Source: Halobacteriales archaeon
Lineage (GTDB): Archaea > Halobacteriota > Halobacteria > Halobacteriales > SKNY01
NCBI GenBank assembly: GCA_007118975.1
Contig: SKQO01000003.1
Location: 12,509 to 76,508 of the forward strand
DNA length: 64,000 bases
Direction of reading: 5' to 3'
The position numbers were made by a program, and so were the translations under genes. Shown here in pieces: positions 2,647 to 32,752 of this stretch. The notes beneath the pieces are model-generated. The model worked only from the letters and a program-made list of their open reading frames with translations. It was not told the origin of the DNA and ran no database searches. The stretch's first letter is position 1. Every line of letters begins with the position of its first letter.

Positions 2647-4224
2647 ATGATCGTTCTCGTCGCGGACCCAATCGAGGAACCCGGGCTGGAATTGCTCCGG
2701 GATGCAGGCCATGACGTCACCGAATTGTACGATGCAGACTCGGCGGAGCTCCGGGAAACAGTGGCTGGTGCACACGCGTTGATCGTCCGCTCCGGGACGA
2801 CGGTCGACGCCGGCCTGCTCGACGCCGCGGACGACCTCGTGATCGTGGGGCGAGCTGGGATCGGGACGGACAACATCGACGAGGAGGCGGCGACCGAACG
2901 GGGAATCATTGTTGCGAACGCCCCCGGTGGGAACGTGCGCGCAGCAGCGGAGCATACGATTGCGATGACGTTCGCGGTCGCACGATCGATCCCACAGGCA
3001 CACATCCGGCTTCGCGAGGGCGAGTGGGCGAAAACCGCCTTCCAGGGAACCGAACTCAACGACCGGACGCTGGGTATCGTCGGGGTCGGACGCGTAGGCA
3101 TGGACGTCGCTCGAAAGCTAAACCGGTTGGGCATGGACCTGGTTGCCTACGACCCGTACATTCCCGTGGAGCGAGCCGAACAGCTCGGCGCGGAGCTGGT
3201 AGATCTCGACACCTGTCTGCAACGGGCGGACTTTCTGAGCGTCCATACACCTCTCACCCCCGAGACGGAAGGAATGATCGGGGAAGAGGAACTCGGCCTC
3301 CTGGGTGACGGGTACCTCATCAACTGCGCTCGCGGGGGCATTGTGGACGAGGACGCACTCGCTCGGGCAGTTACGGCGGGGAAACTCCGTGGGGCGGCGA
3401 TCGACGTCTTCGCCGAAGAGCCATTACCGGCGGACAGCCCCCTGCTCGAAGTCGACGACATCGTGGTAACGCCACACCTCGGGGCGAAAACGGAAACGGC
3501 CCAGCGGGCGGTGGCGACGGAGATCGCAACACAGGTGAACGCGGCACTCGCGGGCGAGCCTGTTACGACCGCACTGAATGCCCCGTCGGTCGATCCTGAT
3601 GCCTCCCCGGAACTGCTAGCATACATGGAACTCGCCGAAACTGCGGGACGGGTCGCCGCCCAGCTCCTCGAGACGCGAATGGATCGCGTCGAGGTACATG
3701 CGAGTGGCGGCATCGGGGAAGAGGATGGTGGCCTGCTGACGGCGTATGCCCTGATGGGCGCCTGCCAGGCGTTCGAGTGGCGAACGACGCCCGTGAATGC
3801 GCGCCGGGTTGCCGAGGAACGGGGAATCGAGGTGTACCAGCGGACCGAGTCACGGACGCGGGATTTCAGTGATCTCGTCCGAGTGGTCGCCAGCAGCGAC
3901 GGAGGCTCGATCGCCGTCGAGGGAACCCTCTTCGAAGGCGAGGAGCCGCGTCTCGTTCGTATCGATGGGTATCGGGTGGACGCGATTCCCCACGGCCACA
4001 TGCTGGTGGTCCGCAACCGAGACGCGCCGGGGGTCATCGGCTACATCGGCACGGCACTGGGCGAACGCGAGATCAATATCGCGGGAATGTTCAACTCGCG
4101 GGAGACCCAAGGTGGGGAAGCGTTGACAGTATATAATCTCGATGAGGCGGTACCGGCCGATCTACTCGCTGAACTGGTCGATGACGGGCGGATCTTCGAT
4201 GCCAGGTACATCACCCTGAACTGA
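2647..4224 (+). CDS. serA: D-3-phosphoglycerate dehydrogenase with C-terminal ACT domain
   Basis: RAGIGTDNID, GIVGVGRVG, INCARGG, TPHLGA, ACT domain NRDAPGVIG; ATG at 2647. Confidence 0.95.
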   Translation: MIVLVADPIEEPGLELLRDAGHDVTELYDADSAELRETVAGAHALIVRSGTTVDAGLLDAADDLVIVGRAGIGTDNIDEEAATERGIIVANAPGGNVRAAAEHTIAMTFAVARSIPQAHIRLREGEWAKTAFQGTELNDRTLGIVGVGRVGMDVARKLNRLGMDLVAYDPYIPVERAEQLGAELVDLDTCLQRADFLSVHTPLTPETEGMIGEEELGLLGDGYLINCARGGIVDEDALARAVTAGKLRGAAIDVFAEEPLPADSPLLEVDDIVVTPHLGAKTETAQRAVATEIATQVNAALAGEPVTTALNAPSVDPDASPELLAYMELAETAGRVAAQLLETRMDRVEVHASGGIGEEDGGLLTAYALMGACQAFEWRTTPVNARRVAEERGIEVYQRTESRTRDFSDLVRVVASSDGGSIAVEGTLFEGEEPRLVRIDGYRVDAIPHGHMLVVRNRDAPGVIGYIGTALGEREINIAGMFNSRETQGGEALTVYNLDEAVPADLLAELVDDGRIFDARYITLN

Positions 4225-4243
4225 GCAAGCCGGTATCCCCGGG

Positions 4244-4257
4244 GAGAAACATTTAAG
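4244..4257 (+). promoter_or_regulatory. BRE/TATA promoter (GAGAAACATTTAAG) with no convincing downstream CDS
   Basis: Matches haloarchaeal BRE + TTTAA consensus; predicted start about 4281-4283. Confidence 0.6.
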
Positions 4258-4282
4258 CCATCGCAGTGGTTTGTTTTCGAAC

Positions 4283-4735
4283 GTTGGGGCAGGGACCAAC
4301 CTGCCATTAACGGGGCCAAGACGAGTAGAAACCCATCGAAGACCGATCATAGCATCAGAATGTGTTGCGATTAAGACACTGCCTGATTCAACTTGTGTTG
4401 CGGTTAAGACACCGCCTGATTCAGAATGTGTTGCGATTAAGACACTGCCTGATGTATTCGGTTGACTCACAGGGTATGCGAAAGAACGGCCCCGAAGTTA
4501 CCTGCTGAGCGCCTGCTGTCTTGAACCTGATTCCTGAAGAAACAAGCTCGTCGTAGGCGCATGCCGAACTGTTGTTTGCGAGTTTCGTGACCCGGCACGT
4601 CGCGCTGGTTCGACAGGGGCGAACAGCCTGAAGTTAGTGATGCGTTCTCGAGACTGTGCCATCTCCAGGGAGTGATGTCCCGCACAGCGAATGTACCGGA
4701 TATCCGGGCTGAAAAACACCCGTAGCCCCCGGCCG
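4283..4735 (+). ncRNA. Candidate large structured non-coding RNA (~450 nt)
   Basis: Upstream promoter; 5'/3' end pairing (4283-4289 with 4727-4733); many nested stems; A-rich loops on + strand; no credible ORF. Confidence 0.5.
4355..4453. repeat. 3 x 33-bp tandem repeat TCAGAATGTGTTGCGATTAAGACACTGCCTGAT
   Basis: Units 4355-4387 and 4421-4453 identical; 4388-4420 differs at 5 positions; each unit has dyad symmetry (GTGT..ACAC, TCAG..CTGA). Confidence 0.97.
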
Positions 4736-4753
4736 ACACGACAACAATCGCCG

Positions 4754-6466
4754 TTAGTCCATATCCGGCTCGAAATACTCCAACCGGGACTCGGGGAACG
4801 CGTGGAATTTGATGCTCCGCTCGGTCACCTCATCGAAGAGTTCCTCGGCGTCCGCTTCAGTCCATGACTCCCATTCCGCATCGAGCAAGTGCTCGTATAC
4901 GACGATCACAACCGGTTCGTCCGGCTCGTAGTCCGGATTCTGGTCCTCGACCGTTTCCTCGGCGTATACTACCCAATCGTCGATGGGGATGTCTCGTGCA
5001 TGGATGACGACGGCCGGATCGGCCTCGGGATCCTCGCGGTCGAGCACGTAATCGCCGGCATTGAACCGCTCTCTCAGCGGCGTGAGCAGCTGAGCTGCGT
5101 AGGCGATGTCGTCTTGGGCCGGCGCGAATCGTTTGGAATCCTCCGCATCGAGTGCGTCCTCCAGTCTGGCCAGCGCCCGCTGCAGACGCTGGAATGATCG
5201 ATTGGTGACGATCGGTTCGATGACCTCGGCGAAGGCAACCACCTCGTCGTAGATGAGGTCGTACAGTTGCCCGTGCACGTCCCCGGTGAGGTGCTCTCGG
5301 AACTGCCCGTTCTCGCGCAACCTTCGATCTTCGGCCGCCTCGGCGTCACTGTCTGCCCGTAACCTGGCATCGACCGCCTCACGCGCGAGCGATGCTACAG
5401 CCATCGCTTCCTCCTCATGGGCGCCGAGTCGTTCGGGAATCTCCCTAAACACCCGGTCGGTTTCCATGAAGGAGCGTTCCTTGGCGTGTCGACGAGCGGT
5501 GGTCACCTGCTCCTCGAGGACATCGGTCCGTGCAGCCACTTCCTCCTCGATATACGATGCCACCGACAGATCGACCGTTCGCTCTTCACGCGTCAGGGCG
5601 ACACTGCCGTCTCCGGATACGAAGTCAACCGTCGGTTCGGAATGGCGGTCATCGACCGCGAAGACCGAGACGCCATCGTCGGCCTCCTCGACACCCAGCG
5701 TTACCTGATGGGGGTTCTCGAAATCCGCGGTGTGGCGGGCGGTTGCCGCGTATAGCATGTCGTTCGTGTACACCCGATCGCCGGGGTCCTCCCGGCGCCA
5801 GCCATCCTCCCGAAACTGATACACCCCGAGGAACACCGCATTGCCCGCTTGGCCCGCCGCTCGATCATCAGCTCCCTCGAATTCATGGGCGATCGTCGCG
5901 AGCGCAGCGTCCGTGTCCGCTGTTACGTCATCACGCCGTGGAAACTCGACGGGTGGGATGGGTTTGTTCGGATCCTCATCCCCCGTCGGCGAGGCGACGC
6001 GAACGTCAAAGTCTTCGAGTACCCGATTGTACTCGCAATCCTCCTCGCAGGCGTCCTCCGAGCCGGCAACGGGGACCGTTTCGAGGACGCACTCGTCGTA
6101 TTCGAGATACAACCAGAGTTCGTCATCGATTGTCTCCTCCGTGGAGACCGGGACGTTGTAATCGTCTTCCGGTACCACGATCGGTCGTCCGCAGCGATCG
6201 ATCGCATACCCGGCGTCGATTGTGACCTCGAAGTCCGCATCCGAATCGACTGCGGGCGAGATTTGGGCCTCGAGACCTTCCACGACCCCGTGACCGCTCA
6301 CGTGTCGTGCGTTCCGCGTGTATAGCCCCCGATAGTACCGTTGTTCGTCCTGCATGTCTCGCGCCGACAGCAACTTTCCGTGGAAGTACCGGTTCCGTTG
6401 GGATTGCCGTAGGCTGCAGTTATCGATCGATTCCGCGTGTCCTGTCGTGTCTTCGTTATCCACCAT
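4754..6466 (-). CDS. CIS fibre/baseplate-attached protein with C-terminal haloarchaeal-type accessory domain
   Basis: N-terminal RNRYFHGKLLSARDMQDEQRY...GYAIDRCGRPIVV typical of the last gene of eCIS baseplate modules; NPHQVT motif; helical middle. Confidence 0.7.
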   Translation of the reverse strand: MVDNEDTTGHAESIDNCSLRQSQRNRYFHGKLLSARDMQDEQRYYRGLYTRNARHVSGHGVVEGLEAQISPAVDSDADFEVTIDAGYAIDRCGRPIVVPEDDYNVPVSTEETIDDELWLYLEYDECVLETVPVAGSEDACEEDCEYNRVLEDFDVRVASPTGDEDPNKPIPPVEFPRRDDVTADTDAALATIAHEFEGADDRAAGQAGNAVFLGVYQFREDGWRREDPGDRVYTNDMLYAATARHTADFENPHQVTLGVEEADDGVSVFAVDDRHSEPTVDFVSGDGSVALTREERTVDLSVASYIEEEVAARTDVLEEQVTTARRHAKERSFMETDRVFREIPERLGAHEEEAMAVASLAREAVDARLRADSDAEAAEDRRLRENGQFREHLTGDVHGQLYDLIYDEVVAFAEVIEPIVTNRSFQRLQRALARLEDALDAEDSKRFAPAQDDIAYAAQLLTPLRERFNAGDYVLDREDPEADPAVVIHARDIPIDDWVVYAEETVEDQNPDYEPDEPVVIVVYEHLLDAEWESWTEADAEELFDEVTERSIKFHAFPESRLEYFEPDMD

Positions 6467-6489
6467 TCAATGATCGCCTCCCGTCGAAC

Positions 6490-9132
6490 TCACGATAGCC
6501 GTGCCTCCTCGTCGAGCCGCGCGTGTACGCCCAGGTTGGCATCCGGTTCACGCGAACCGAGGACGCTTTCCTGGCCGAGCGTTGCCTCCTCGAGCACCAA
6601 CTCGCGGGATAGCAAGACGGTGTTTACCCCGAGATAGGTGTGAAATCCCCGACCCCCTTCCTCGCCCGGGAGCACGGTCCGTTGCCGGAGCGCCACAGCG
6701 CGTCCGCTTGCGTGGGCGGGTCGCTGAAACCTGACGATCCGGCCGATGGCGCGGAACTGTTCTTCCGGGAGATCCGGATGACAGAGCACGAGGAATCCCA
6801 TTGGACAACTGATCAGTCGCTCGAACAGCTCGGCATGAGCATCCGCGTCGATGGCATCCAGCTCGCGGCGTTCGACGATCCAGACGAGCGACTCAGAACT
6901 CGTGTCTGACAGTTCCTTGTGTCGTTCGATCGCCTCCGTCCGTGCGGTCGGCGTGAGGTGGCCGCGTTCCACCAACCGGTCCAGCTGGTGGTGCTCACGC
7001 GCGAGTGCCGGATTCCAGTCGGGGCGGTCGACATCGACCGTCTCGAGATACAACTGGATCATCTCCTCAAGGCCTTCCCGCGTCCCGCGCTTTCGGTACA
7101 GCGCCGGCGCCTGTTCGATCAACGATCGGGTTGCCTCGGTCGGCCACGCCTCGTCAACTTCCACACCGAGGAACTCGCCGAGCCACGCGAGGTGGGGCAT
7201 ATCTCCGGGGATGCCCTGGGGATCCAGGATCGTCGAAATGTCCGCGATTTCGTGATCGACGTCGGTTAGTATCCGCTCGAACAGCGCCAAAAAGCGTTCG
7301 AGGAACGCGCTCGTTTCCTCGTCCTCGCGGTACACCGCTGGAAGTTCCGATAGATACGACTCCCGTGGGTAGCTGGCATCAACCGACTGGACCGTCGGTA
7401 CTGCATCTTCTGTCCCCACTAAATCGAGTTGAACCCACAGGTATCGGCCGTTCGCGTCGAGTAACACGTCGCGTGGATCCGCCGCCGAGAGCGTCGTCCA
7501 GTCCTCGCCGGTTCCGAACGTCGCCCGTACAGGATCGGACGCGAGGATCCCCTCCGCCTCATCCTGCCAATCTGCGGCGCGAGCGGGCGTAATCGTCCGG
7601 ATCCCCCGCGTCACGAGCGACGCGATCAGACCGACATCGAGGCCCGCTAACTCCTGCGGGGACGTGATGCCACCCGCCGCCAACCGTGCTTTTCTGATCG
7701 GTCCGATCCCCGTGATCGCCTGCAAATCTCCCTCGTCCATGGACGCCGCCTCCTCCCGCCAGGTCTCGACGCGCGAGCGGGCGACACCGACCTCCTCGAC
7801 GCTCAAGATCGTCGCGATCGTCTCGGGTGACAACTCGAGGAAGTCGACCAGATCTTCGACACCCGCCTGCCTCAATCGCCGGGCCTTGCGAGGACCGATC
7901 CCGTCGACAGCTCGCAACTCACCCCGATCCGTGGCCTCGATTTGTACGTCCCGCGGTTGTGTGTTGGTCGCACGGTAGTGAACCTGCACTTGCGTATCGG
8001 CAGGAACGGTTGTTTCGAGGGTCAAGCGATGCCACTGCAGGTCATCCATGCCCGCGTCGAAGGCAGTTCTGACGACGCCGTGCACCTCTCCGGTTGTCGG
8101 ATCCGCCCGGTAGGAGCGTGATGCATCGACCCGAAACAACGAGCCATCGGCATTGACGACGAATACCTGACGGTTGTCACCGGTACCGACCGAGACCATG
8201 CGATTGCAACCTGCCCGGAAGCGGGCCTGTACATCAAAGCCCACACGTTCGGGGCGATACGAAAGCAATCGTCGCTCGCCGTCGTGGGTCGGGTCGACCC
8301 CCACGAGTAACTCGCCGGGAGCGCCGGTTGCCAGGCACCCGGGCACGAAAGACGAGTCCGTCTCCAGTGATCGGAGGGCCCTGGGTGGCACCCAGATGCT
8401 TTCGGTCGCCGGGACGGGCGGGCGGGCAAGCGCACGGCCATCGATCCGTCGAACCACGTACTCGGTCGTCTCGTCGGAATCGGGTTGCAGCCGTGGTTCG
8501 AGGACGTACAGATCGCCAGCATCGTCGAAATCCGCGTCGATCGGGTCGGTAAGACCGATGACGATCGTTCGGAACCTGGCATCCCGGGTTACCCGCGCGA
8601 GCGTTCCCCGACCGTGGTGGGGCCCAGCATCGAGCAAGAACACCTCGTCACCGTCACGCACGAAGCCGACTGGTTTGTGAATGCCACGCTCCTTGACCCA
8701 CCGGAGCTGGCCGAGCTCTCGCGAGTAGGCACGGACCGTCCCTGTGTCGACCGTTGCCACGTAGAGCGTATCGGCAGTCATGGCGATCGCCACCACCTCC
8801 CCGTCAGTCAAGTCGACGGCACCGAGCGGCGAAAGGTGGCCCTCGCCGGGTACCTGTCGATACACGCGGCCGTTCACATCAAGGAGATAGCGTGTCCCAC
8901 ACGGTTCGATGTCCACATCGACGATCTCGAGGGAGGAGGCGGGTTCGACGACCTTCTGGGGTCGACGGACCGTCGCGTCGATCAACAGATCGGTTTTGTC
9001 CCGATACGATCGAGCGCTTGTGGTCGAGACCCGGATACCCGTCTCCGCTTCCTCGTCGAGGACGTCCACGTTCCGTCCATCCCAGTCCGTCCACGATTGC
9101 GGCGTGTGGGTTCCACGTGCGGCGAAATCCAT
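6490..9132 (-). CDS. CIS baseplate wedge/phage tail-I-like protein with N-terminal beta-propeller-like region and two HhH modules
   Basis: YLSELPAVYRED..FLERFLALFE..LAWLG..LYRKRGTREGL (P2 gpI-like); two GIGP HhH motifs. Confidence 0.8.
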   Translation of the reverse strand: MDFAARGTHTPQSWTDWDGRNVDVLDEEAETGIRVSTTSARSYRDKTDLLIDATVRRPQKVVEPASSLEIVDVDIEPCGTRYLLDVNGRVYRQVPGEGHLSPLGAVDLTDGEVVAIAMTADTLYVATVDTGTVRAYSRELGQLRWVKERGIHKPVGFVRDGDEVFLLDAGPHHGRGTLARVTRDARFRTIVIGLTDPIDADFDDAGDLYVLEPRLQPDSDETTEYVVRRIDGRALARPPVPATESIWVPPRALRSLETDSSFVPGCLATGAPGELLVGVDPTHDGERRLLSYRPERVGFDVQARFRAGCNRMVSVGTGDNRQVFVVNADGSLFRVDASRSYRADPTTGEVHGVVRTAFDAGMDDLQWHRLTLETTVPADTQVQVHYRATNTQPRDVQIEATDRGELRAVDGIGPRKARRLRQAGVEDLVDFLELSPETIATILSVEEVGVARSRVETWREEAASMDEGDLQAITGIGPIRKARLAAGGITSPQELAGLDVGLIASLVTRGIRTITPARAADWQDEAEGILASDPVRATFGTGEDWTTLSAADPRDVLLDANGRYLWVQLDLVGTEDAVPTVQSVDASYPRESYLSELPAVYREDEETSAFLERFLALFERILTDVDHEIADISTILDPQGIPGDMPHLAWLGEFLGVEVDEAWPTEATRSLIEQAPALYRKRGTREGLEEMIQLYLETVDVDRPDWNPALAREHHQLDRLVERGHLTPTARTEAIERHKELSDTSSESLVWIVERRELDAIDADAHAELFERLISCPMGFLVLCHPDLPEEQFRAIGRIVRFQRPAHASGRAVALRQRTVLPGEEGGRGFHTYLGVNTVLLSRELVLEEATLGQESVLGSREPDANLGVHARLDEEARLS

Positions 9133-18938: not shown

Positions 18939-21716
18939 ATGACTGACGGCCATCGCCGAACTTCTCGAGATAAAGAAGCGGGCGCCAGGCATGACGGCGT
19001 CAGCCGAACGACCCAGTCCGCTACCGGTCGCTCCCTGAAAGCGCAACTGCAGCGGGGACTCGGGAACCAGGCGGTGCGGGAACTCGACCTTCAAGAGGCG
19101 GGCTCGCCCGTGGTTAGTCACCCATCTGATCGGTCCGAACAGGAGGCAGCCCGTATCGCAACGGAGCTGTCGAGCAGACCTGACGCTTCCACTGGGAGCG
19201 CCCACCATTCAACATTCGATACCGATGAACGGAGCACACCTCCGGGGTCGACGGAGGGACCGTCGCTGCCGGCGGATCTCACCCGAGCTGTCGAGGGACG
19301 GTTCAACGACGACCTCTCCGACGTACGAATTCATACCGATTCGTCGGCGAACGACGTCGCGGAATCGATCGATGCCGAAGCATTCACCGTCGGCAATCAC
19401 ATCGGATTTGCATCGGGGGCATTTCGCCCGGATTCACGGACGGGACGGAGAGTGCTGTCCCACGAACTCGCCCACGTGCTCCAGCACCGGGGCCACGCCG
19501 GAATGAAAACACCAACCGGTATGGTCCACCGGCAAGCACGCGGCACCTCGCGTGAGACAACCGAAAACCCGCGGCCGACAGCGGAAGCCGCCGAAGAGCG
19601 TCCCTCGCCAGCACCACAGCCAGTTTCGGGCGTCTGGATCGGCAATGAAAACGATTTCACCACGCATCGGATCTACGAACTCCACGAGCCCCACGGATAC
19701 CAAGTAGACCTCCCGGAGCGACGCATCTCGATTACCGTCGAGACCGAGAGAGTCCCCTGGGTCGCGCTCGAGGAACAGATAGCGGAGATGTGGGGATATA
19801 CAATCGTGCGGGGGCCGATCCAGCTCGCGGAGTTTCATCTGTCGAACGAGCAGGTACAGGTCGAGACCGCACATTCGATTCTCGACCTGGAAACCGGCGC
19901 CTTGGTGGCCGACGTCCGCGCCTGGGCCCTCGAGGATCGATATCCCGAGTTCGAGCGGTTCAGCGAACGATATCTCATTCCAGCAACGAGCGCGGATACG
20001 GGTGTCCCCAGTGGTTCTTACCGCAACATCGGCGAGCTCGAAGAACGGCTGTCCCTGCGGTACGCGCTCGTGCGGACTGATACTCCGACTCTCGAGGGAG
20101 AAGTCTTCGATCGGTCCGTTGCGCTCGAATCGACCGACTACGCTGGCCTGGACGCGCACGGGAATCGATATGAGGTATGGCAGAACGGCGATGGATCCTA
20201 CCTCATCTACCAGTTTTCGGACGACCTACCGGGCGAGCATCTCCAGTCACATGTCCGCGGCTCGATCCCGGCCCTTGCGAGTGCCGTTTCGGAAAGCGGA
20301 CTGCAAGTGGTCAAGCAGAACCCGGTGGGACAGCCGACCGCCATGTATGTGAGAGGTGGGGAAGTCGCACACGAAGTTCGCGAGGTCGATGGTGGGCTGG
20401 AAGTCGATCTCTCCGAGGAAGGGCATGACACCATCCGCACCGGAGCGCCCGACATCGACGCCCTCGGCTTCAGCCTCCCGGACGGGTATCTAGTCCATGA
20501 CATCGTGAGTGGCAGGTACAGTCGATCGAAATACGGGGGATTGGCCGGAACACTTGGGCCGGACCGATTCGAAGAATCGGAGGCGCCGGCCCTCGAAGCG
20601 GTCGAGGTCGTCACTCACACCGGCGACAGCGAGGAAAAATCCGCCGTCGAGGCGACAGACATCCGCGAACAATGGCTCCACGCGATCGAGACCGCGGAAT
20701 CGGTGCTCGACAACACGTGGGAACAGTACTCCAACTACCGCACACAGTATAATGATTCGCGGGTTATGGCGACCACCGCGGGGGTCGTCGAGTTCTTCAG
20801 CCGTGCATCGTTCGACCCGACCGAGTACTACCAGGCGAGGACGCACTTCAACAACGCACGATCCGCCATCGTCACGCATCCGATCAACGTCGAAGAGGCA
20901 GCGCATGAACTCCACGCGGGCGAGAGCATGATTGCCGACGTCCAGCGCGAATACGCCGAGTTCATGCAGCAAAATATCGATACCGGTGAAGCGATAGTCG
21001 ACCACCTGGAAGACATCGAAGATGCCTCACAGTCGGTTATCGAAACGATCGCCAAGGCCAAGTACGGTACGTACGGCGGGATCGTCATCGGGGCCGTTTA
21101 CCAACACATGGGGCAGGATGCCGCCCGCCAGTTAACGGAAGGGCATCTGGCGAATCTCGATAACGAGCAGCGGCAAACTGCGTGGGCGGAGGTCGACTGG
21201 AGTGAGAATGTAGGGGGCGTCGTCCGAACGAGCATCCAGGGGATTCTGACGGACCTGATCAACAGTGGGATCGGAACCGGGATCGATCGGTTCGACGGTG
21301 CCGATGAGAGCACATTGGCCACGGTCGTCGAAGAGTACCTCAAAAACCTCACCGGAGAGATTGCAAGCGAGGCGGCCGAGGCGGTCGAGGGTATCGATCC
21401 CCGATCCGAGGGGTTTGAAACGTTCCTCGCGGCCCTGATCGATGGTGCAATCGCTGGGCTTGCTGAGGCTGCATCGCTCGATACCTTCGTCGATACGTTT
21501 TTCGACGTCGTGAGCGAGGAACTCGATAAACCCGGGTGGGTCACCTACGAGCGGATGGGCTGGGGAGAAGAAGTGCAGTTCGGGTCGGCCGATGACCTCA
21601 AACTCGATGACGATATTGAGCTCGACGGCGAGATTATCGAGCTGATTTCGACGCTGGAGGACCTGTTCGGGACCGTGATCGACGACGCCATCGAGAAGAT
21701 CGAAGAGCGCCGCTGA
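18939..21716 (+). CDS. DUF4157 (eCIS core) domain protein with long unknown C-terminus; candidate cargo/effector
   Basis: LQRGLGNQAV; DLSDVRIHTD..AEAFTVGNHI..LSHELAHVLQ (HExxH); inverted inside the CIS cluster. Confidence 0.85.
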   Translation: MTDGHRRTSRDKEAGARHDGVSRTTQSATGRSLKAQLQRGLGNQAVRELDLQEAGSPVVSHPSDRSEQEAARIATELSSRPDASTGSAHHSTFDTDERSTPPGSTEGPSLPADLTRAVEGRFNDDLSDVRIHTDSSANDVAESIDAEAFTVGNHIGFASGAFRPDSRTGRRVLSHELAHVLQHRGHAGMKTPTGMVHRQARGTSRETTENPRPTAEAAEERPSPAPQPVSGVWIGNENDFTTHRIYELHEPHGYQVDLPERRISITVETERVPWVALEEQIAEMWGYTIVRGPIQLAEFHLSNEQVQVETAHSILDLETGALVADVRAWALEDRYPEFERFSERYLIPATSADTGVPSGSYRNIGELEERLSLRYALVRTDTPTLEGEVFDRSVALESTDYAGLDAHGNRYEVWQNGDGSYLIYQFSDDLPGEHLQSHVRGSIPALASAVSESGLQVVKQNPVGQPTAMYVRGGEVAHEVREVDGGLEVDLSEEGHDTIRTGAPDIDALGFSLPDGYLVHDIVSGRYSRSKYGGLAGTLGPDRFEESEAPALEAVEVVTHTGDSEEKSAVEATDIREQWLHAIETAESVLDNTWEQYSNYRTQYNDSRVMATTAGVVEFFSRASFDPTEYYQARTHFNNARSAIVTHPINVEEAAHELHAGESMIADVQREYAEFMQQNIDTGEAIVDHLEDIEDASQSVIETIAKAKYGTYGGIVIGAVYQHMGQDAARQLTEGHLANLDNEQRQTAWAEVDWSENVGGVVRTSIQGILTDLINSGIGTGIDRFDGADESTLATVVEEYLKNLTGEIASEAAEAVEGIDPRSEGFETFLAALIDGAIAGLAEAASLDTFVDTFFDVVSEELDKPGWVTYERMGWGEEVQFGSADDLKLDDDIELDGEIIELISTLEDLFGTVIDDAIEKIEERR

Positions 21717-29204: not shown

Positions 29205-29643
29205 CTCAGCGACCTCCAGGAGAACAGCGTTTCGTATGTGAGGGGCGGCACATGACGCTGGTACCATGATTCGCTATGGGTAAAATACCTTTCCACCGGT
29301 AATGGCTAGTGTGTTGCACCCTCCGATTAGATTCAGTAACGACAGTGATGGCACAGGGCGAGTGATGGAAAGCCAGAGTCGATATCGAAACGTTTCGGCG
29401 AAGTGTATCATCCGCGAGCGGGATACACTCTCACGCCCGGCGACGGTACACTGGCCCGGAACTCGTCTAGAATGTCATCCTGAACGGGATCACGCTCGAT
29501 TCAACGTATGCCGACCTGCCGAGGGCACGCGGCCCAGGTGTCCGCCAACTGCCACCGCTTGAGCAATCCCAGCCGAATGAACCCGTGCCAAGAAATGGCT
29601 CCGACGGAGAAGCCTTTGACGCTTCCGGGCCCACAAGCGACAC

Positions 29644-31014
29644 TCACTGTTCCCGAGCATAGTCGGTGTTGATTCGGTTCGCGATGTTCCTTCCGACCGG
29701 GATTGCATCCTCCACCGAGAAACGGAAGTGGCTACCGAACCGGATCCGACTCTCGCAAGATTCCTCGAACGCGTCCCCAACGCCGGCAAATGACATCGTC
29801 CGTTCTGACGTTCCGAAGGACGTAATCTCGAACGGGAGTTTCACGGAACCGAATGTGTCGACCAGGAGTTCACTCGCGACGGCTCCAAAACACGCCAATC
29901 CCGACGGGTATTCCGGGCTAATACCGGTGTGAAGCGGCTCCCAATGTCGATCCGAGACGGTTTCGGGATTCCCGTCAGCGTCCCCGTGATGAATCGCCGG
30001 CTTGGGTCGCCAGAACCCGTAATTGTATTTTGCCTTCCATACACAGATACCCGCATCGGCCATCCCAACCCCGAGCCGCGCCAACAAGCGCGCTATCTCG
30101 AGCATCGGGAGATCCCGCTTCTCGGTCACGATCATGGCGATTTGCATCCAGCGACCCGCAGGAGTGATCGCGCCCCTTCCGCCTGACCACAGGCCGGCGA
30201 TTACTTCATCTTCCGCACGGACATCCCCCGAATAATCGTACGCATACACCTCGTGCCACGCCTCTGCGTAGTCGTTGCTCTCGAGAGCGGGTGGGCGGCC
30301 GAACTCGGTGCCGTTTGGCGTGTCGATCACCCACGTATCGACGGTCGCGTAGTGGGCTGATGCCCACACCCCGTCGCGTGCCAGGCCGCGCCAGCACCCC
30401 GGGTTGTGCTTCGGGTCATTGCACGCACGATAGGGTGGGATTTCCGGGTCGTCATGGCCATCGTCGGCGCGAGCCGTCAGTACCTCGTTGGCGACGGACT
30501 CCCCGAACCGCTTACCTGCAGGGATATCACGGTCGTATGCCGTTGCAAATTCGAGTGTCGCAGCCAGCCGCGTATCGAAGATGTCGGTGCTGACGGGAAA
30601 CAGCTCGGACAGTACAGTGTGGGCAGCTGCCCCGACGGCAGCCAGCCGGGAGGTATCCGGGGAGGGTTTCTCGTGTGGCGCATGGAAATGTTCGAAATGT
30701 CGTTCCCCCCGCGCTGCAGCGATCGCATTGAGCGTATCGAACAGCGTGACGTTGAGACAGGCGGCCTGGCGGGCAACGGCGACGGCTGGTTGTGGCCATT
30801 GACGGATCACGTCCAACCAGATCCGATTCCACTCCACGACAAACGCCGGCCGCGTAGCCTCGATCCCTCCTGCTTCGAGAACGCTCGTACAGCCTGCCAT
30901 CCCGGCAGTCGCGCTCGCAGCCGAAGTCGCCAGGAGTTCCCGTCGCGTGAATGACTCACGCCAGGACGGTGGGCTCCATTGATCACGCTCCCCACACGAG
31001 ATCCGAAAGGTCAT
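29644..31014 (-). CDS. Vanadium-dependent haloperoxidase/PAP2-like protein, predicted Tat lipoprotein
   Basis: TRRELL twin-Arg plus MAGC lipobox; KYNYGFWRP, EYPSG, SRIRFGSHF motifs; start uncertain. Confidence 0.8.
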   Translation of the reverse strand: MTFRISCGERDQWSPPSWRESFTRRELLATSAASATAGMAGCTSVLEAGGIEATRPAFVVEWNRIWLDVIRQWPQPAVAVARQAACLNVTLFDTLNAIAAARGERHFEHFHAPHEKPSPDTSRLAAVGAAAHTVLSELFPVSTDIFDTRLAATLEFATAYDRDIPAGKRFGESVANEVLTARADDGHDDPEIPPYRACNDPKHNPGCWRGLARDGVWASAHYATVDTWVIDTPNGTEFGRPPALESNDYAEAWHEVYAYDYSGDVRAEDEVIAGLWSGGRGAITPAGRWMQIAMIVTEKRDLPMLEIARLLARLGVGMADAGICVWKAKYNYGFWRPKPAIHHGDADGNPETVSDRHWEPLHTGISPEYPSGLACFGAVASELLVDTFGSVKLPFEITSFGTSERTMSFAGVGDAFEESCESRIRFGSHFRFSVEDAIPVGRNIANRINTDYAREQ

Positions 31015-31492
31015 CCGGGGCTGGGACTTCGTAGCGGTCCGGCAAGATAGAGTGTGTCGTTTGCGCTCCTTCTCGAAGCATTCCTGCACCGGCGAGTAGG
31101 GGGCAGAAAGCCCGTGGCCCGGTGTAACTTAGTGATCGCTACCCGGGGACACTGCAGATTCGTTTCCGATCCACTGTCGACACAACAGTCCTGTTACCCA
31201 CGCCCGGGTGCTCGCGTTCTTGAACGTCCGAGATGGTAGCCCACGGCCTCTTGGGGCCGCCAAAAATGAGCGGAGGAACAACCGCATCCGGGCAACTGAA
31301 CGATAACAAAGCTATCGGCCACATCCATGACTGTATTGGCAGTCGATAAATTCGATTGGCAGCGCCCGAGATCTCCTACCATCACGCACGCATGGGTGTC
31401 TTGAGGACACGACACCTCTCAGTACCAAAACATTCCCGTTCGGCAACCAGTTGCTATCACTGACTATCTCTGTCCTGGGATCACGAACCAGA

Positions 31493-32752
31493 CTACTCTG
31501 CGAGTAGCTCGAGGACATCAGCCGTCGTTGCGCTGACTGGCTCGGGGTCGACCCCCGCTGCCGCGGCCGCATCCGGGTCTTTCAGTAGATGGCCAGTGGT
31601 GAGACAGACTACCCGCTCGGACGCGTCAACGACGCCCTGCTCACGAAGTGCGCGCAAGCCGGCGAGCGAGGCCGCACTCGCCGGTTCGACCCCGATGCCT
31701 CGTTCGGCCAGCGATCGCTGGGCATCGGTTATCTCCTCGTCTTCGACGGCGATGGCGGTGCCGCCGGTCTCGCGAATGGCGGGGATCGCTTTGGGGGCGT
31801 TTACCGGATTCCCGATCCGGATCGCCGTGGCGATCGTCTCCACCTCGTTCCAGCGCGTGATCGAATCCGCTCCATCCTCGATCGCTTCGACCAGGGGGGC
31901 GGCGCCTGCAGCCTGCACGCCTGTTAGTTTCGGGACATCGTCCGGTCCGATCGCGCCGGCGGCGACAAGTTCGCGAAAGGCTTTGTGGAGCGCGCTGGTG
32001 TTGCCCGCATTCCCGACCGGCAACACGACTCGATCGGGAATGGCGCCGTATCGTTCCCGGAAGGCCTCGAGCATCTCCAAGCCGATGGTCTTCTGCCCCT
32101 CGAGTCGGTACGGGTTGAGCGAGTTCAGCAAATAGACTTCCCCCCGTTCGGCCAGCTCGGAGACCAGATCCAGGCAGGTGTCGAAGTTGCCGTCGACTTC
32201 GAGGATACGGGCACCGTGGAGGGCGGCCTGGGCAAGCTTCCCGGCAGCGACTTTGCCCGCCGGCAACAGCACGAGTACCGGCATCCCGTCTCTCGCACCG
32301 TAGGCGGCGAGCGCTGCGCTCGTGTTGCCCGTGGACGCGCACGCGAGTCGTTCGACCCCGAGGCGACGGGCAACCGCCACCCCTACGGTCATCCCGCGAT
32401 CCTTGAAACTCCCCGTCGGATTCATCCCCTCGTGCTTGACGGCCAGCGTCGAGACGCCGACTTCACGCGCCAGTTCGGGGGCGTGGTACAGTGGCGTGTC
32501 CCCCTCCTGGATCGAGACACCGTCATCCACGGGGAGGGCGTCCCGGTATCGCCACACGCCGCGACCGTCGAACGCCGACCAGCCCGGGAGTTCGGCGTAG
32601 CGAACTTCGAGAAGGCCCTGGCAGGACGGGCACCGGTAGACGATATCGGCAAAGGGCGCCACCTCCTCGCTGCACTCGATACAGTGAAGCCAGACGCCGT
32701 CAGCCGCGACGTCGGGTGACGGCTGTCCGGTTTCGATCTCGAGATGTGCCAT
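31493..32752 (-). CDS. thrC: Threonine synthase
   Basis: NPTGSFKDRG, CASTGNTS, PVGNAGN, EPASA; N-terminal Zn ribbon. Confidence 0.95.
   Translation of the reverse strand: MAHLEIETGQPSPDVAADGVWLHCIECSEEVAPFADIVYRCPSCQGLLEVRYAELPGWSAFDGRGVWRYRDALPVDDGVSIQEGDTPLYHAPELAREVGVSTLAVKHEGMNPTGSFKDRGMTVGVAVARRLGVERLACASTGNTSAALAAYGARDGMPVLVLLPAGKVAAGKLAQAALHGARILEVDGNFDTCLDLVSELAERGEVYLLNSLNPYRLEGQKTIGLEMLEAFRERYGAIPDRVVLPVGNAGNTSALHKAFRELVAAGAIGPDDVPKLTGVQAAGAAPLVEAIEDGADSITRWNEVETIATAIRIGNPVNAPKAIPAIRETGGTAIAVEDEEITDAQRSLAERGIGVEPASAASLAGLRALREQGVVDASERVVCLTTGHLLKDPDAAAAAGVDPEPVSATTADVLELLAE

Follow-up and report, generated by a model that had tools for sequence, protein, structure and literature searches.

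A putative tRNA-Val-derived transcription unit with a tandem-repeat hairpin between serA and a contractile-injection-system island in a salt-loving archaeon

The window analyzed here is a 64,000-nt stretch of contig SKQO01000003.1 (positions 12,509 to 76,508) from an uncultured, salt-loving archaeon of the order Halobacteriales, whose genome assembly (GCA_007118975.1) is 78% complete. A gap of 529 nt (4225-4753) in this window separates two convergent genes: on the plus strand serA, a serine-synthesis gene with 2-Hacid_dh, PGDH_inter, and ACT domains that ends at 4224, and on the minus strand a 570-aa gene without a Pfam family (4754-6466), the last of a contractile-injection-system (CIS) cluster with baseplate J, gp25, spike, tube, sheath, AAA ATPase, and Pvc16_N genes. 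In G001 and G002, two of the three genus relatives, serA directly adjoins a PLP-dependent gene of the threonine-synthase type, the two genes running toward each other without a gap. The window orthologue of the PLP-dependent gene (thrC) lies at 31493-32752, so the ~27 kb separating it from serA (4225-31492) is extra relative to those relatives, and the repeat-containing element described below lies at the left boundary of this inserted CIS island. The element is not a genomic-island att scar in the usual sense: no significant att-like repeat is common to the left gap and the right end of the island (29268-31492; best E 0.88), and a Pfam scan of 20 window ORFs (583-34008) found no integrase domain among them.

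Judged by its reading frames, the gap contains no credible coding sequence, as the initial annotation had held for the region behind its proposed promoter. The ORFs of the gap have GC3 values of 0.35-0.60 and CAI values of 0.39-0.51, against 0.72-0.73 and 0.69-0.70 for serA and the CIS genes, and none of its nine reading frames has a Pfam or PADLOC match above cut-off; a search of the same frames for protein remnants gave three sub-threshold Pfam matches (E 0.0064-0.21) and none in PADLOC. What the gap does contain is a promoter-like site. A 16-nt matrix learnt upstream of the genome's own 32 tRNA genes (consensus AAACGAAACGTTTAAT) gives 10.8 bits to 4242-4257 on the plus strand (GGGAGAAACATTTAAG), the top-scoring site on either strand of the gap, with the 32 tRNA sites themselves spanning 0.2 to 15.3 bits. 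The BRE/TATA sequence GAAACATTTAAG of the initial annotation (TATA 4252-4257) is present at 4246-4257 and resembles the promoters of this genome's tRNA genes. Across the genome, 648 of 6,859,774 positions score at least as high, which corresponds to a chance expectation of ~0.1 in 2 x 529 nt, and a score of this size alone would turn up by chance in about one gap in ten. With the usual (modal) promoter offset, 42 nt, the 5' end would fall near 4284, next to the start of ~4283 originally proposed. Between serA and this predicted start lies a T-rich tract, TTTGTTTT, at 4270-4277; U-tracts terminate archaeal transcripts.

Downstream of the predicted start, positions 4311-4494 of the plus strand form an imperfect hairpin of 184 nt, here called the rod, and the core of the rod is a 33-nt tandem repeat present in 3.0 copies (4355-4453; TRF and repeat search). 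Copies 1 and 3 are identical and copy 2 matches them at 28 of 33 positions, with five differences, giving the arrangement A-B-A. Each unit is quasi-palindromic (UCAG..GUGUU-8 nt-GACAC..CUGA, with a GUGUU/GACAC stem and an 8-nt loop), a symmetry that makes the array fold back on itself; within the folded rod, the repeat modules pair with one another. Unit positions 16 and 26 change together from A/U to G/C, a joint change that by inspection, and in three units only, would fit a small pseudoknot. The initial annotation had overlooked the repeats. The 33-nt period leaves no room for spacers, and a CRISPR-like array was rejected.

The fold signal is concentrated in the rod. The segment 4308-4497 reaches -65.9 kcal/mol on the plus strand (z -5.01, 0 of 200 dinucleotide shuffles as good) and folds almost as well on the minus strand (z -4.57, again 0 of 200). 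The array by itself folds to -37.1 kcal/mol (z -3.1) on the plus strand versus -29.9 (z -2.3) on the minus strand, and mirroring the plus-strand structure onto the minus strand costs 11 kcal/mol; the plus strand is thereby mildly favored. A single structured RNA of ~450 nt, closed by a terminal helix reaching 4727-4733, had been proposed for this region. The eight helix arms on which that proposal was built exist at the positions given there, seven as perfect Watson-Crick pairings and the terminal one (4283-4289/4727-4733) with the help of two U.G pairs, but the shuffle comparison does not extend their support to the whole: the 451-nt stretch folds only weakly better than its shuffles, and alike on both strands (z -2.27 plus, -2.59 minus). 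Its 5' part (4283-4354, plus strand; z -2.07, 6 of 200 shuffles as good) pairs locally in the minimum-energy fold. On the plus strand, its 3' part (4454-4733) is less stable than its shuffles (z +1.50, 192 of 200 at least as good), and on the minus strand it is neutral (z -0.22, 75 of 200), so that the 3' 60% (280 nt) of the proposed RNA is without structural support. By comparison, the 229 nt from 4283 to 4511 reach -80.2 kcal/mol (z -3.93, 0 of 200). The AGUA and GAA sequences that had been likened to a loop-E motif both fall within a 13 x 12-nt internal loop, and we give them no weight.

Weak matches of the gap against its own genome led to a second locus, on contig C144, that places these features in a different light. 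There, the order is GTTGGGGCAG, 3 nt, a tRNA-Val(CAC) gene (74 nt, c[10167,10240]), 5 nt, and CTGCCATTAACGGGGC-GGGA-GCCCCGAAGTTACGTGCCGAGCG: the leader and trailer of the tRNA form a helix that extends the acceptor stem, and a small GC hairpin then follows. This leader-trailer pairing is the strongest of the 32 tRNA loci in the genome (-19.9 kcal/mol, the next best being -15.8). Three blocks of the window are collinear with the C144 unit and together identical at 47 of 49 positions: 4283-4292 (10/10) corresponds to the leader, 4301-4316 (16/16) to the trailer and hairpin stem, and 4489-4511 (21/23, against C144 10139-10117) to the stretch after the hairpin, which is likely the 3' limit of the unit. 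Neither the trailer block nor the post-hairpin block has any further occurrence in the genome. Upstream of the leader the two loci are unrelated, and after 4511 the similarity stops sharply. The promoter motif starts 41 nt before the first block in the window and 39 nt before it at the tRNA-Val gene, and at both loci similarity starts within a few bases of the predicted transcript start.

Block order, promoter spacing, and the leader-trailer helix are thus kept, and the two units differ in what the helices enclose. Where C144 has 3 + 74 + 5 nt, the window has an 8-nt loop, so that the former leader and trailer form an 11-bp mini-hairpin at the 5' end (4283-4311, plus strand); and where the tail hairpin of C144, closed by the CGGGGC/GCCCCG stem common to both loci, has its 4-nt GGGA loop, the window has ~170 nt with the three repeats. 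ARAGORN finds no tRNA gene in the whole window, and a blastn-short comparison of the gap with the tRNA-Val locus returns the three flank blocks and one unrelated 8-nt word (4593-4600), with nothing in the array. A search of 25 relatives with the tRNA-Val locus matched tRNA bodies only, mostly of tRNA-Ile, and none of the flanks. Rfam likewise gave no match at E up to 10 in 3000-6500 and none at gathering score in the whole window, in line with the earlier remark that signatures of RNase P RNA, SRP RNA, and tRNA are missing. By its sequence, then, the element is a tRNA-less paralogue of the genome's tRNA-Val(CAC) transcription unit and not a member of a large-RNA class. This paralogy accounts for a promoter with no coding sequence behind it and for the hairpin at the predicted start, and because both the homology and the fold signal end by ~4511, the unit is best drawn from 4283 to ~4511 rather than to 4733. 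The remainder of the gap up to the stop of the 570-aa gene (4512-4753) is a spacer with no detectable feature, its fold being no better than shuffles (4454-4733) and none of its frames having a family match above cut-off. A switch between GCAGG (4289) and three CCTGC partners had also been suggested; these sequences are present, the partners at 4300, 4501, and 4512, but the one at 4501 reads CGTGC in the sole paralogue.

The sequence is present in one DNA run and one metatranscriptome of the same sample. Over 3200-6199, the RNA run has a single perfect-match contig, 96 nt long and without mismatches, which covers exactly the repeat cycle (B-A-B-A junctions) at a depth of 340; the DNA run has an identical 96-nt contig at a depth of 6.75, with flanking contigs at 7.3 and 8.5. 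Since the RNA run comprises 958 million letters and the DNA run 3,164 million, a 3.3-fold difference, carried-over DNA is an unlikely source of this depth. The RNA run has no contigs on 4200-4354 or 4454-6199, which is not evidence that the flanks are absent from the RNA, because the DNA run too has a hole, at 4281-4357. Contigs of this kind report the repeats only, and the strand and both ends of the RNA cannot be read from them; these, like any function, we infer. Because the 96-nt contig runs across unit junctions, some of the molecules at least have not been cut down to one unit. A non-coding transcription unit that has escaped annotation, driven from an archaeal promoter of its own and beginning near 4283, is likely at this locus, and the repeat-hairpin unit is probably expressed at a high level. 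Of the initial proposal, the unannotated non-coding RNA behind a promoter of its own fits these data, and the single ~450-nt molecule does not, the fold signal lying in 4311-4494.

The reading that best explains the locus, to which we give a probability of roughly 0.55, is that of a tRNA-Val-derived unit with a repeat rod, producing an RNA of ~230 nt. A plus-strand transcript would start near 4283 from the tRNA-type BRE/TATA at 4242-4257; the former leader and trailer would pair directly into the small hairpin at 4283-4311; the former tail hairpin would have been expanded by a palindromic insert of ~170 nt, with the three 33-nt repeats as its core, into the rod at 4311-4494; and the unit would end near 4511, giving about 230 nt in place of 450. 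A strong promoter and a very stable hairpin could let such an RNA accumulate, which would fit the high depth of the repeats in the RNA library. If the RNA is real and functional, the promoter and processing flanks of a tRNA have been re-used for a new, abundant archaeal small RNA. That the RNA is instead a functionless by-product of a self-expanding palindromic tRNA tail is a substantial possibility, although we would not put it at even odds; we regard it as about on a par with the antisense activity considered below.

The element is real, unannotated, and lineage-specific. Array and rod occur at a single locus in their own genome (DNA search, pattern search, and blastn, in the 78%-complete assembly), and no relative was found by DNA similarity of the gap in 60 related genomes, by repeat pattern, allowing 3 mismatches at most, in 400 further genomes of the order, or by repeat pattern in genome, metagenome, and viral contigs; searches of plasmids and phages were empty as well. 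These absences are weak evidence, since sampling of the genus is thin, at three genomes whose SerA is about 65% identical. The initial reading also gave the RNA a functional link with the neighboring CIS, for instance in a regulatory or cargo role. Relatives of the 570-aa gene occur in 64 of the 400 other genomes of the order (no close relatives of the protein turned up in metagenome contigs), compared with none for the repeat, and none of 37 loci near homologues of this last CIS gene resembles the gap (29 searched by blastn, best E 0.2, and 8 longer downstream stretches searched by nhmmer and TRF). At most of the examined loci, the next gene follows closely on the relative of the 570-aa gene. 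The association of the element with the CIS is positional alone. A CIS-tied RNA spanning 4283-4733 and closed by a terminal helix would account for the helices found, for a plausible promoter, and for the position at the edge of the island, but against the unsupported 3' region, the local pairing of the 5' end, the end of tRNA-Val homology at 4511, and the empty CIS loci, we consider it highly improbable. The first reading is corrected accordingly: the promoter and the "terminal" hairpin appear to be inherited from a tRNA-Val unit, and half of the proposed molecule is unsupported.

Several other readings share parts of this evidence. The array could be a DNA-level feature that is transcribed incidentally, either a self-expanding palindromic tail of a duplicated tRNA unit, which grew through template switching or slippage, or a solitary mobile hairpin: the fold quality of the rod is about the same on the two strands, the identity of copies 1 and 3 would fit a recent duplication, and the insert lies exactly inside a pre-existing hairpin loop. 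Its occurrence at one locus only is ill-suited to a mobile element, the rod ends (CATTAA versus AAGTTA) show no target-site duplication, and the complementarity to serA described below is unexpected for a neutral repeat, which leaves this reading doubtful while still deserving real weight. The position between two convergent 3' ends and the strong hairpin on both strands would also fit a hairpin in which the serA and CIS transcripts both end, a bidirectional terminator or 3'-end structure that is left over as a stable fragment when they decay; yet the promoter-like site lies directly upstream, the tRNA-Val block begins at the predicted start, and the T-rich tract already follows serA before the element, so we give this explanation next to no credence. 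Since the minus strand supports a nearly equivalent rod fold, the RNA may instead be a 3' piece of the CIS-operon transcript. A small repeat-peptide gene is as hard to sustain as the terminator reading. The 33-nt period equals 11 codons and the GAA to ACT difference between units is exactly one codon of the first of two candidate frames (4271-4465, plus strand, with SECVAIKTLPD three times; the other, 4362-4508, plus strand, has a basic LRLRHCLIQ repeat), but the two ORFs have GC3 values of 0.35 and 0.57 and CAI values of 0.39 and 0.40, versus 0.72-0.73 and 0.69-0.70 in real genes, they have no homologue and no Pfam match above cut-off, and the sole start of 4271-4465, a TTG at 4271, is upstream of the predicted transcript start.

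In architecture, the element comes closest to ToxI, the RNA of type III toxin-antitoxin systems, and unit-length modules cut from the array, or its three hairpins left intact, could in principle bind and hold a protein encoded elsewhere, as a ToxI-like antitoxin or a sponge RNA. According to PMC3401426, ToxI consists of 5.5 repeats of 36 nt after a promoter; in a type III locus, the short tandem repeats precede a short palindromic terminator and a toxin gene (ToxN, CptN, or TenpN), all on one strand; each repeat is a toxin-binding pseudoknot and the RNA is cut to unit length; and one putative archaeal locus is reported, cptIN of Methanococcus vannielii. With the ToxIN, CptIN, and TenpIN arrays as described there, the element shares a layout in which a few tandem units of ~33-36 nt stand behind a promoter, as well as an abundant RNA, its repeats being deep in the RNA library, and the joint change at unit positions 16 and 26 would fit a small pseudoknot in its three units. 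It differs in having no terminator and toxin gene, and in that its units pair together into one long hairpin. No toxin gene lies downstream on the same strand, 4454-4753 being without a coding-like ORF or family match; the one toxin family searched, Pfam ToxN_toxin (PF13958), is unmatched in the genome at its 78% completeness; the RNA contig runs through the joints between units; and there is no known partner protein. The element is not a member of the type III systems, and a ToxI-like or sponge function is very unlikely.

To return to the tRNA-Val-derived unit with its repeat rod, one lead to a possible role is a site in the coding region of serA (3504-3539, plus strand) that is complementary to each repeat over 17 + 9 bp, including 4 G.U pairs. 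In a scan of the window for RNA duplexes with one unit, this candidate target stood out from the rest; it gives 26 bp at -40.1 kcal/mol with unit B and -35.2 kcal/mol with unit A. Among the non-self sites in 171,114 windows of 80 nt from both strands of the genome, it ranks third for unit B, after two unrelated sites at -43.0 and -41.3, and its pairing energy is not an outlier genome-wide. By the sum 2A+B, which reflects the composition of the array, the serA site ranks first of 21,460 retained windows (-110.5, followed by -109.0 and -107.5), a statistic that was picked after the hit was known and for which unit A was evaluated solely in windows already chosen by means of unit B. When the units are permuted, with the same permutation for A and B, 0 of 177 permutations reach the observed value within 1.5 kb on each side (mean -81.8, sd 6.5), and in our reading of the duplexes all five differences between A and B keep or improve the pairing. 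Similarity of the array to serA in a DNA alignment is not significant (48 of 300 shuffles reach it).

The complementarity could arise without function if an inverted, templated copy of serA sequence was made during expansion of the hairpin. Alternatively, the repeat modules may act antisense on the 3504-3539 site of the serA mRNA, with pairing possibly seeded by the apical loop in unit B; the duplex predictions make this conceivable, and we propose it only tentatively, as our guess at an activity and an unlikely but pursuable lead. The fuller scenario, in which a tRNA unit would have turned into a three-module antisense-RNA gene that tunes the neighboring core gene serA, strikes us as somewhat more doubtful still. 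Were the antisense reading true, a host serine-synthesis transcript would be tuned by an RNA from the border of a CIS island that had arrived by horizontal transfer, and if the RNA is real and functional, serA is a directly testable target. If read-through from serA occurs, the array would become a 3'-UTR that pairs with its own coding region.

Parallels for individual features of the element exist elsewhere. The distal repeats of the E. coli tyrT operon, or RtT RNA (Rfam RF00391), are tandem repeats of unclear function, transcribed in the tail of a tRNA transcription unit; the element shares that arrangement, but its repeats do not copy the 3' end of a tRNA, the tRNA itself is absent, and Rfam is unmatched. 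MITE and PATE-type elements are mobile hairpins, and like them the element is a gene-less sequence of ~180 nt that folds into a long imperfect hairpin; it differs in being single-copy and in having a tandem array as its interior. The rod has inverted arms, but their outer stem pre-exists in the tRNA-Val paralogue and the flanks are not a duplication, and a multi-copy MITE was rejected, given one locus in the genome. Among archaeal small RNAs, sRNA132 of Haloferax volcanii (PMC6560208) is an intergenic, independently transcribed non-coding RNA of a haloarchaeon that may act on mRNA, in which the element would resemble it; the element differs in being a tandem-repeat hairpin, derived from a tRNA unit and without relatives in the collections searched. 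A limited full-text literature search for tandem-repeat small RNAs in archaea gave nothing relevant and is too thin to claim novelty. One further match to the array within the genome, an exact 16-nt match between the 5' half of unit A and C5:971-986 (E 0.046-0.11, genome), does not extend and is probably due to chance; it sits in another gap, ahead of a T-tract.

Positions 4225-31492 of the window, which comprise the entire contractile injection system (CIS) cluster and the gaps on its two sides (529 nt and about 400 nt), are inserted between serA and a PLP-dependent threonine-synthase-type gene that is convergent with it. In two relatives from the same genus (G001 and G002), the stops of this gene pair lie directly against each other. 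Neither an integrase domain nor flanking direct repeats were found for the insertion.

The last gene of the cluster (4754-6466, minus strand) looks like a fusion. The counterparts of residues ~1-280 of its product are the last genes in about 30 CIS loci of haloarchaea; residues ~465-568 have matches at about three dozen places in other genomes, within open frames mostly of 120-500 amino acids. Pfam holds no family for either part. A baseplate protein (Tail_P2_I, 880 amino acids; 6490-9132, minus strand) carries a helix-hairpin-helix domain (HHH_5), a nucleic-acid-binding-type module that is unusual for a baseplate component; a DUF4332 match in the same protein is sub-threshold (19.9 bits against a cut-off of 23.2). 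The only plus-strand gene within the cluster (18939-21716) encodes a 925-amino-acid protein whose N-terminal region contains an eCIS core domain (PF13699); this protein is a candidate payload or effector by its appearance.

Elsewhere in the genome, the tRNA-Val(CAC) unit (contig C144, 10117-10253, minus strand; 6118-6254 of the stretch L049) has an unusual precursor design. Its acceptor stem is lengthened by a 10-bp leader-trailer helix, and at none of the other loci in a set of 32 tRNA loci do leader and trailer pair as strongly; this helix is followed by a GC hairpin. There is no T-tract directly 3' of the tRNA, and about 800 nt of non-coding DNA lie downstream.

Repeat unit A is the first and third copy of the 33-nt tandem repeats in the serA-CIS gap (4355-4453). 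Its 5' half has a 16-nt exact match on another contig of this genome (C5, 971-986, minus strand; E 0.046-0.11 against the genome), in another non-coding gap, where a small hairpin and then a T5 tract come shortly after it. This match is possibly due to chance, since the similarity does not extend beyond the 16 nt.

In the metagenome of the sample that also yielded the RNA run, the contig over serA stops at 4280, close to where the sequence resembling the tRNA-Val unit (4283-4292, 4301-4316 and 4489-4511) begins, and no contig was placed at 4281-4357. The break at 4280/4281 may reflect strain variation at the junction, or only contig filtering.
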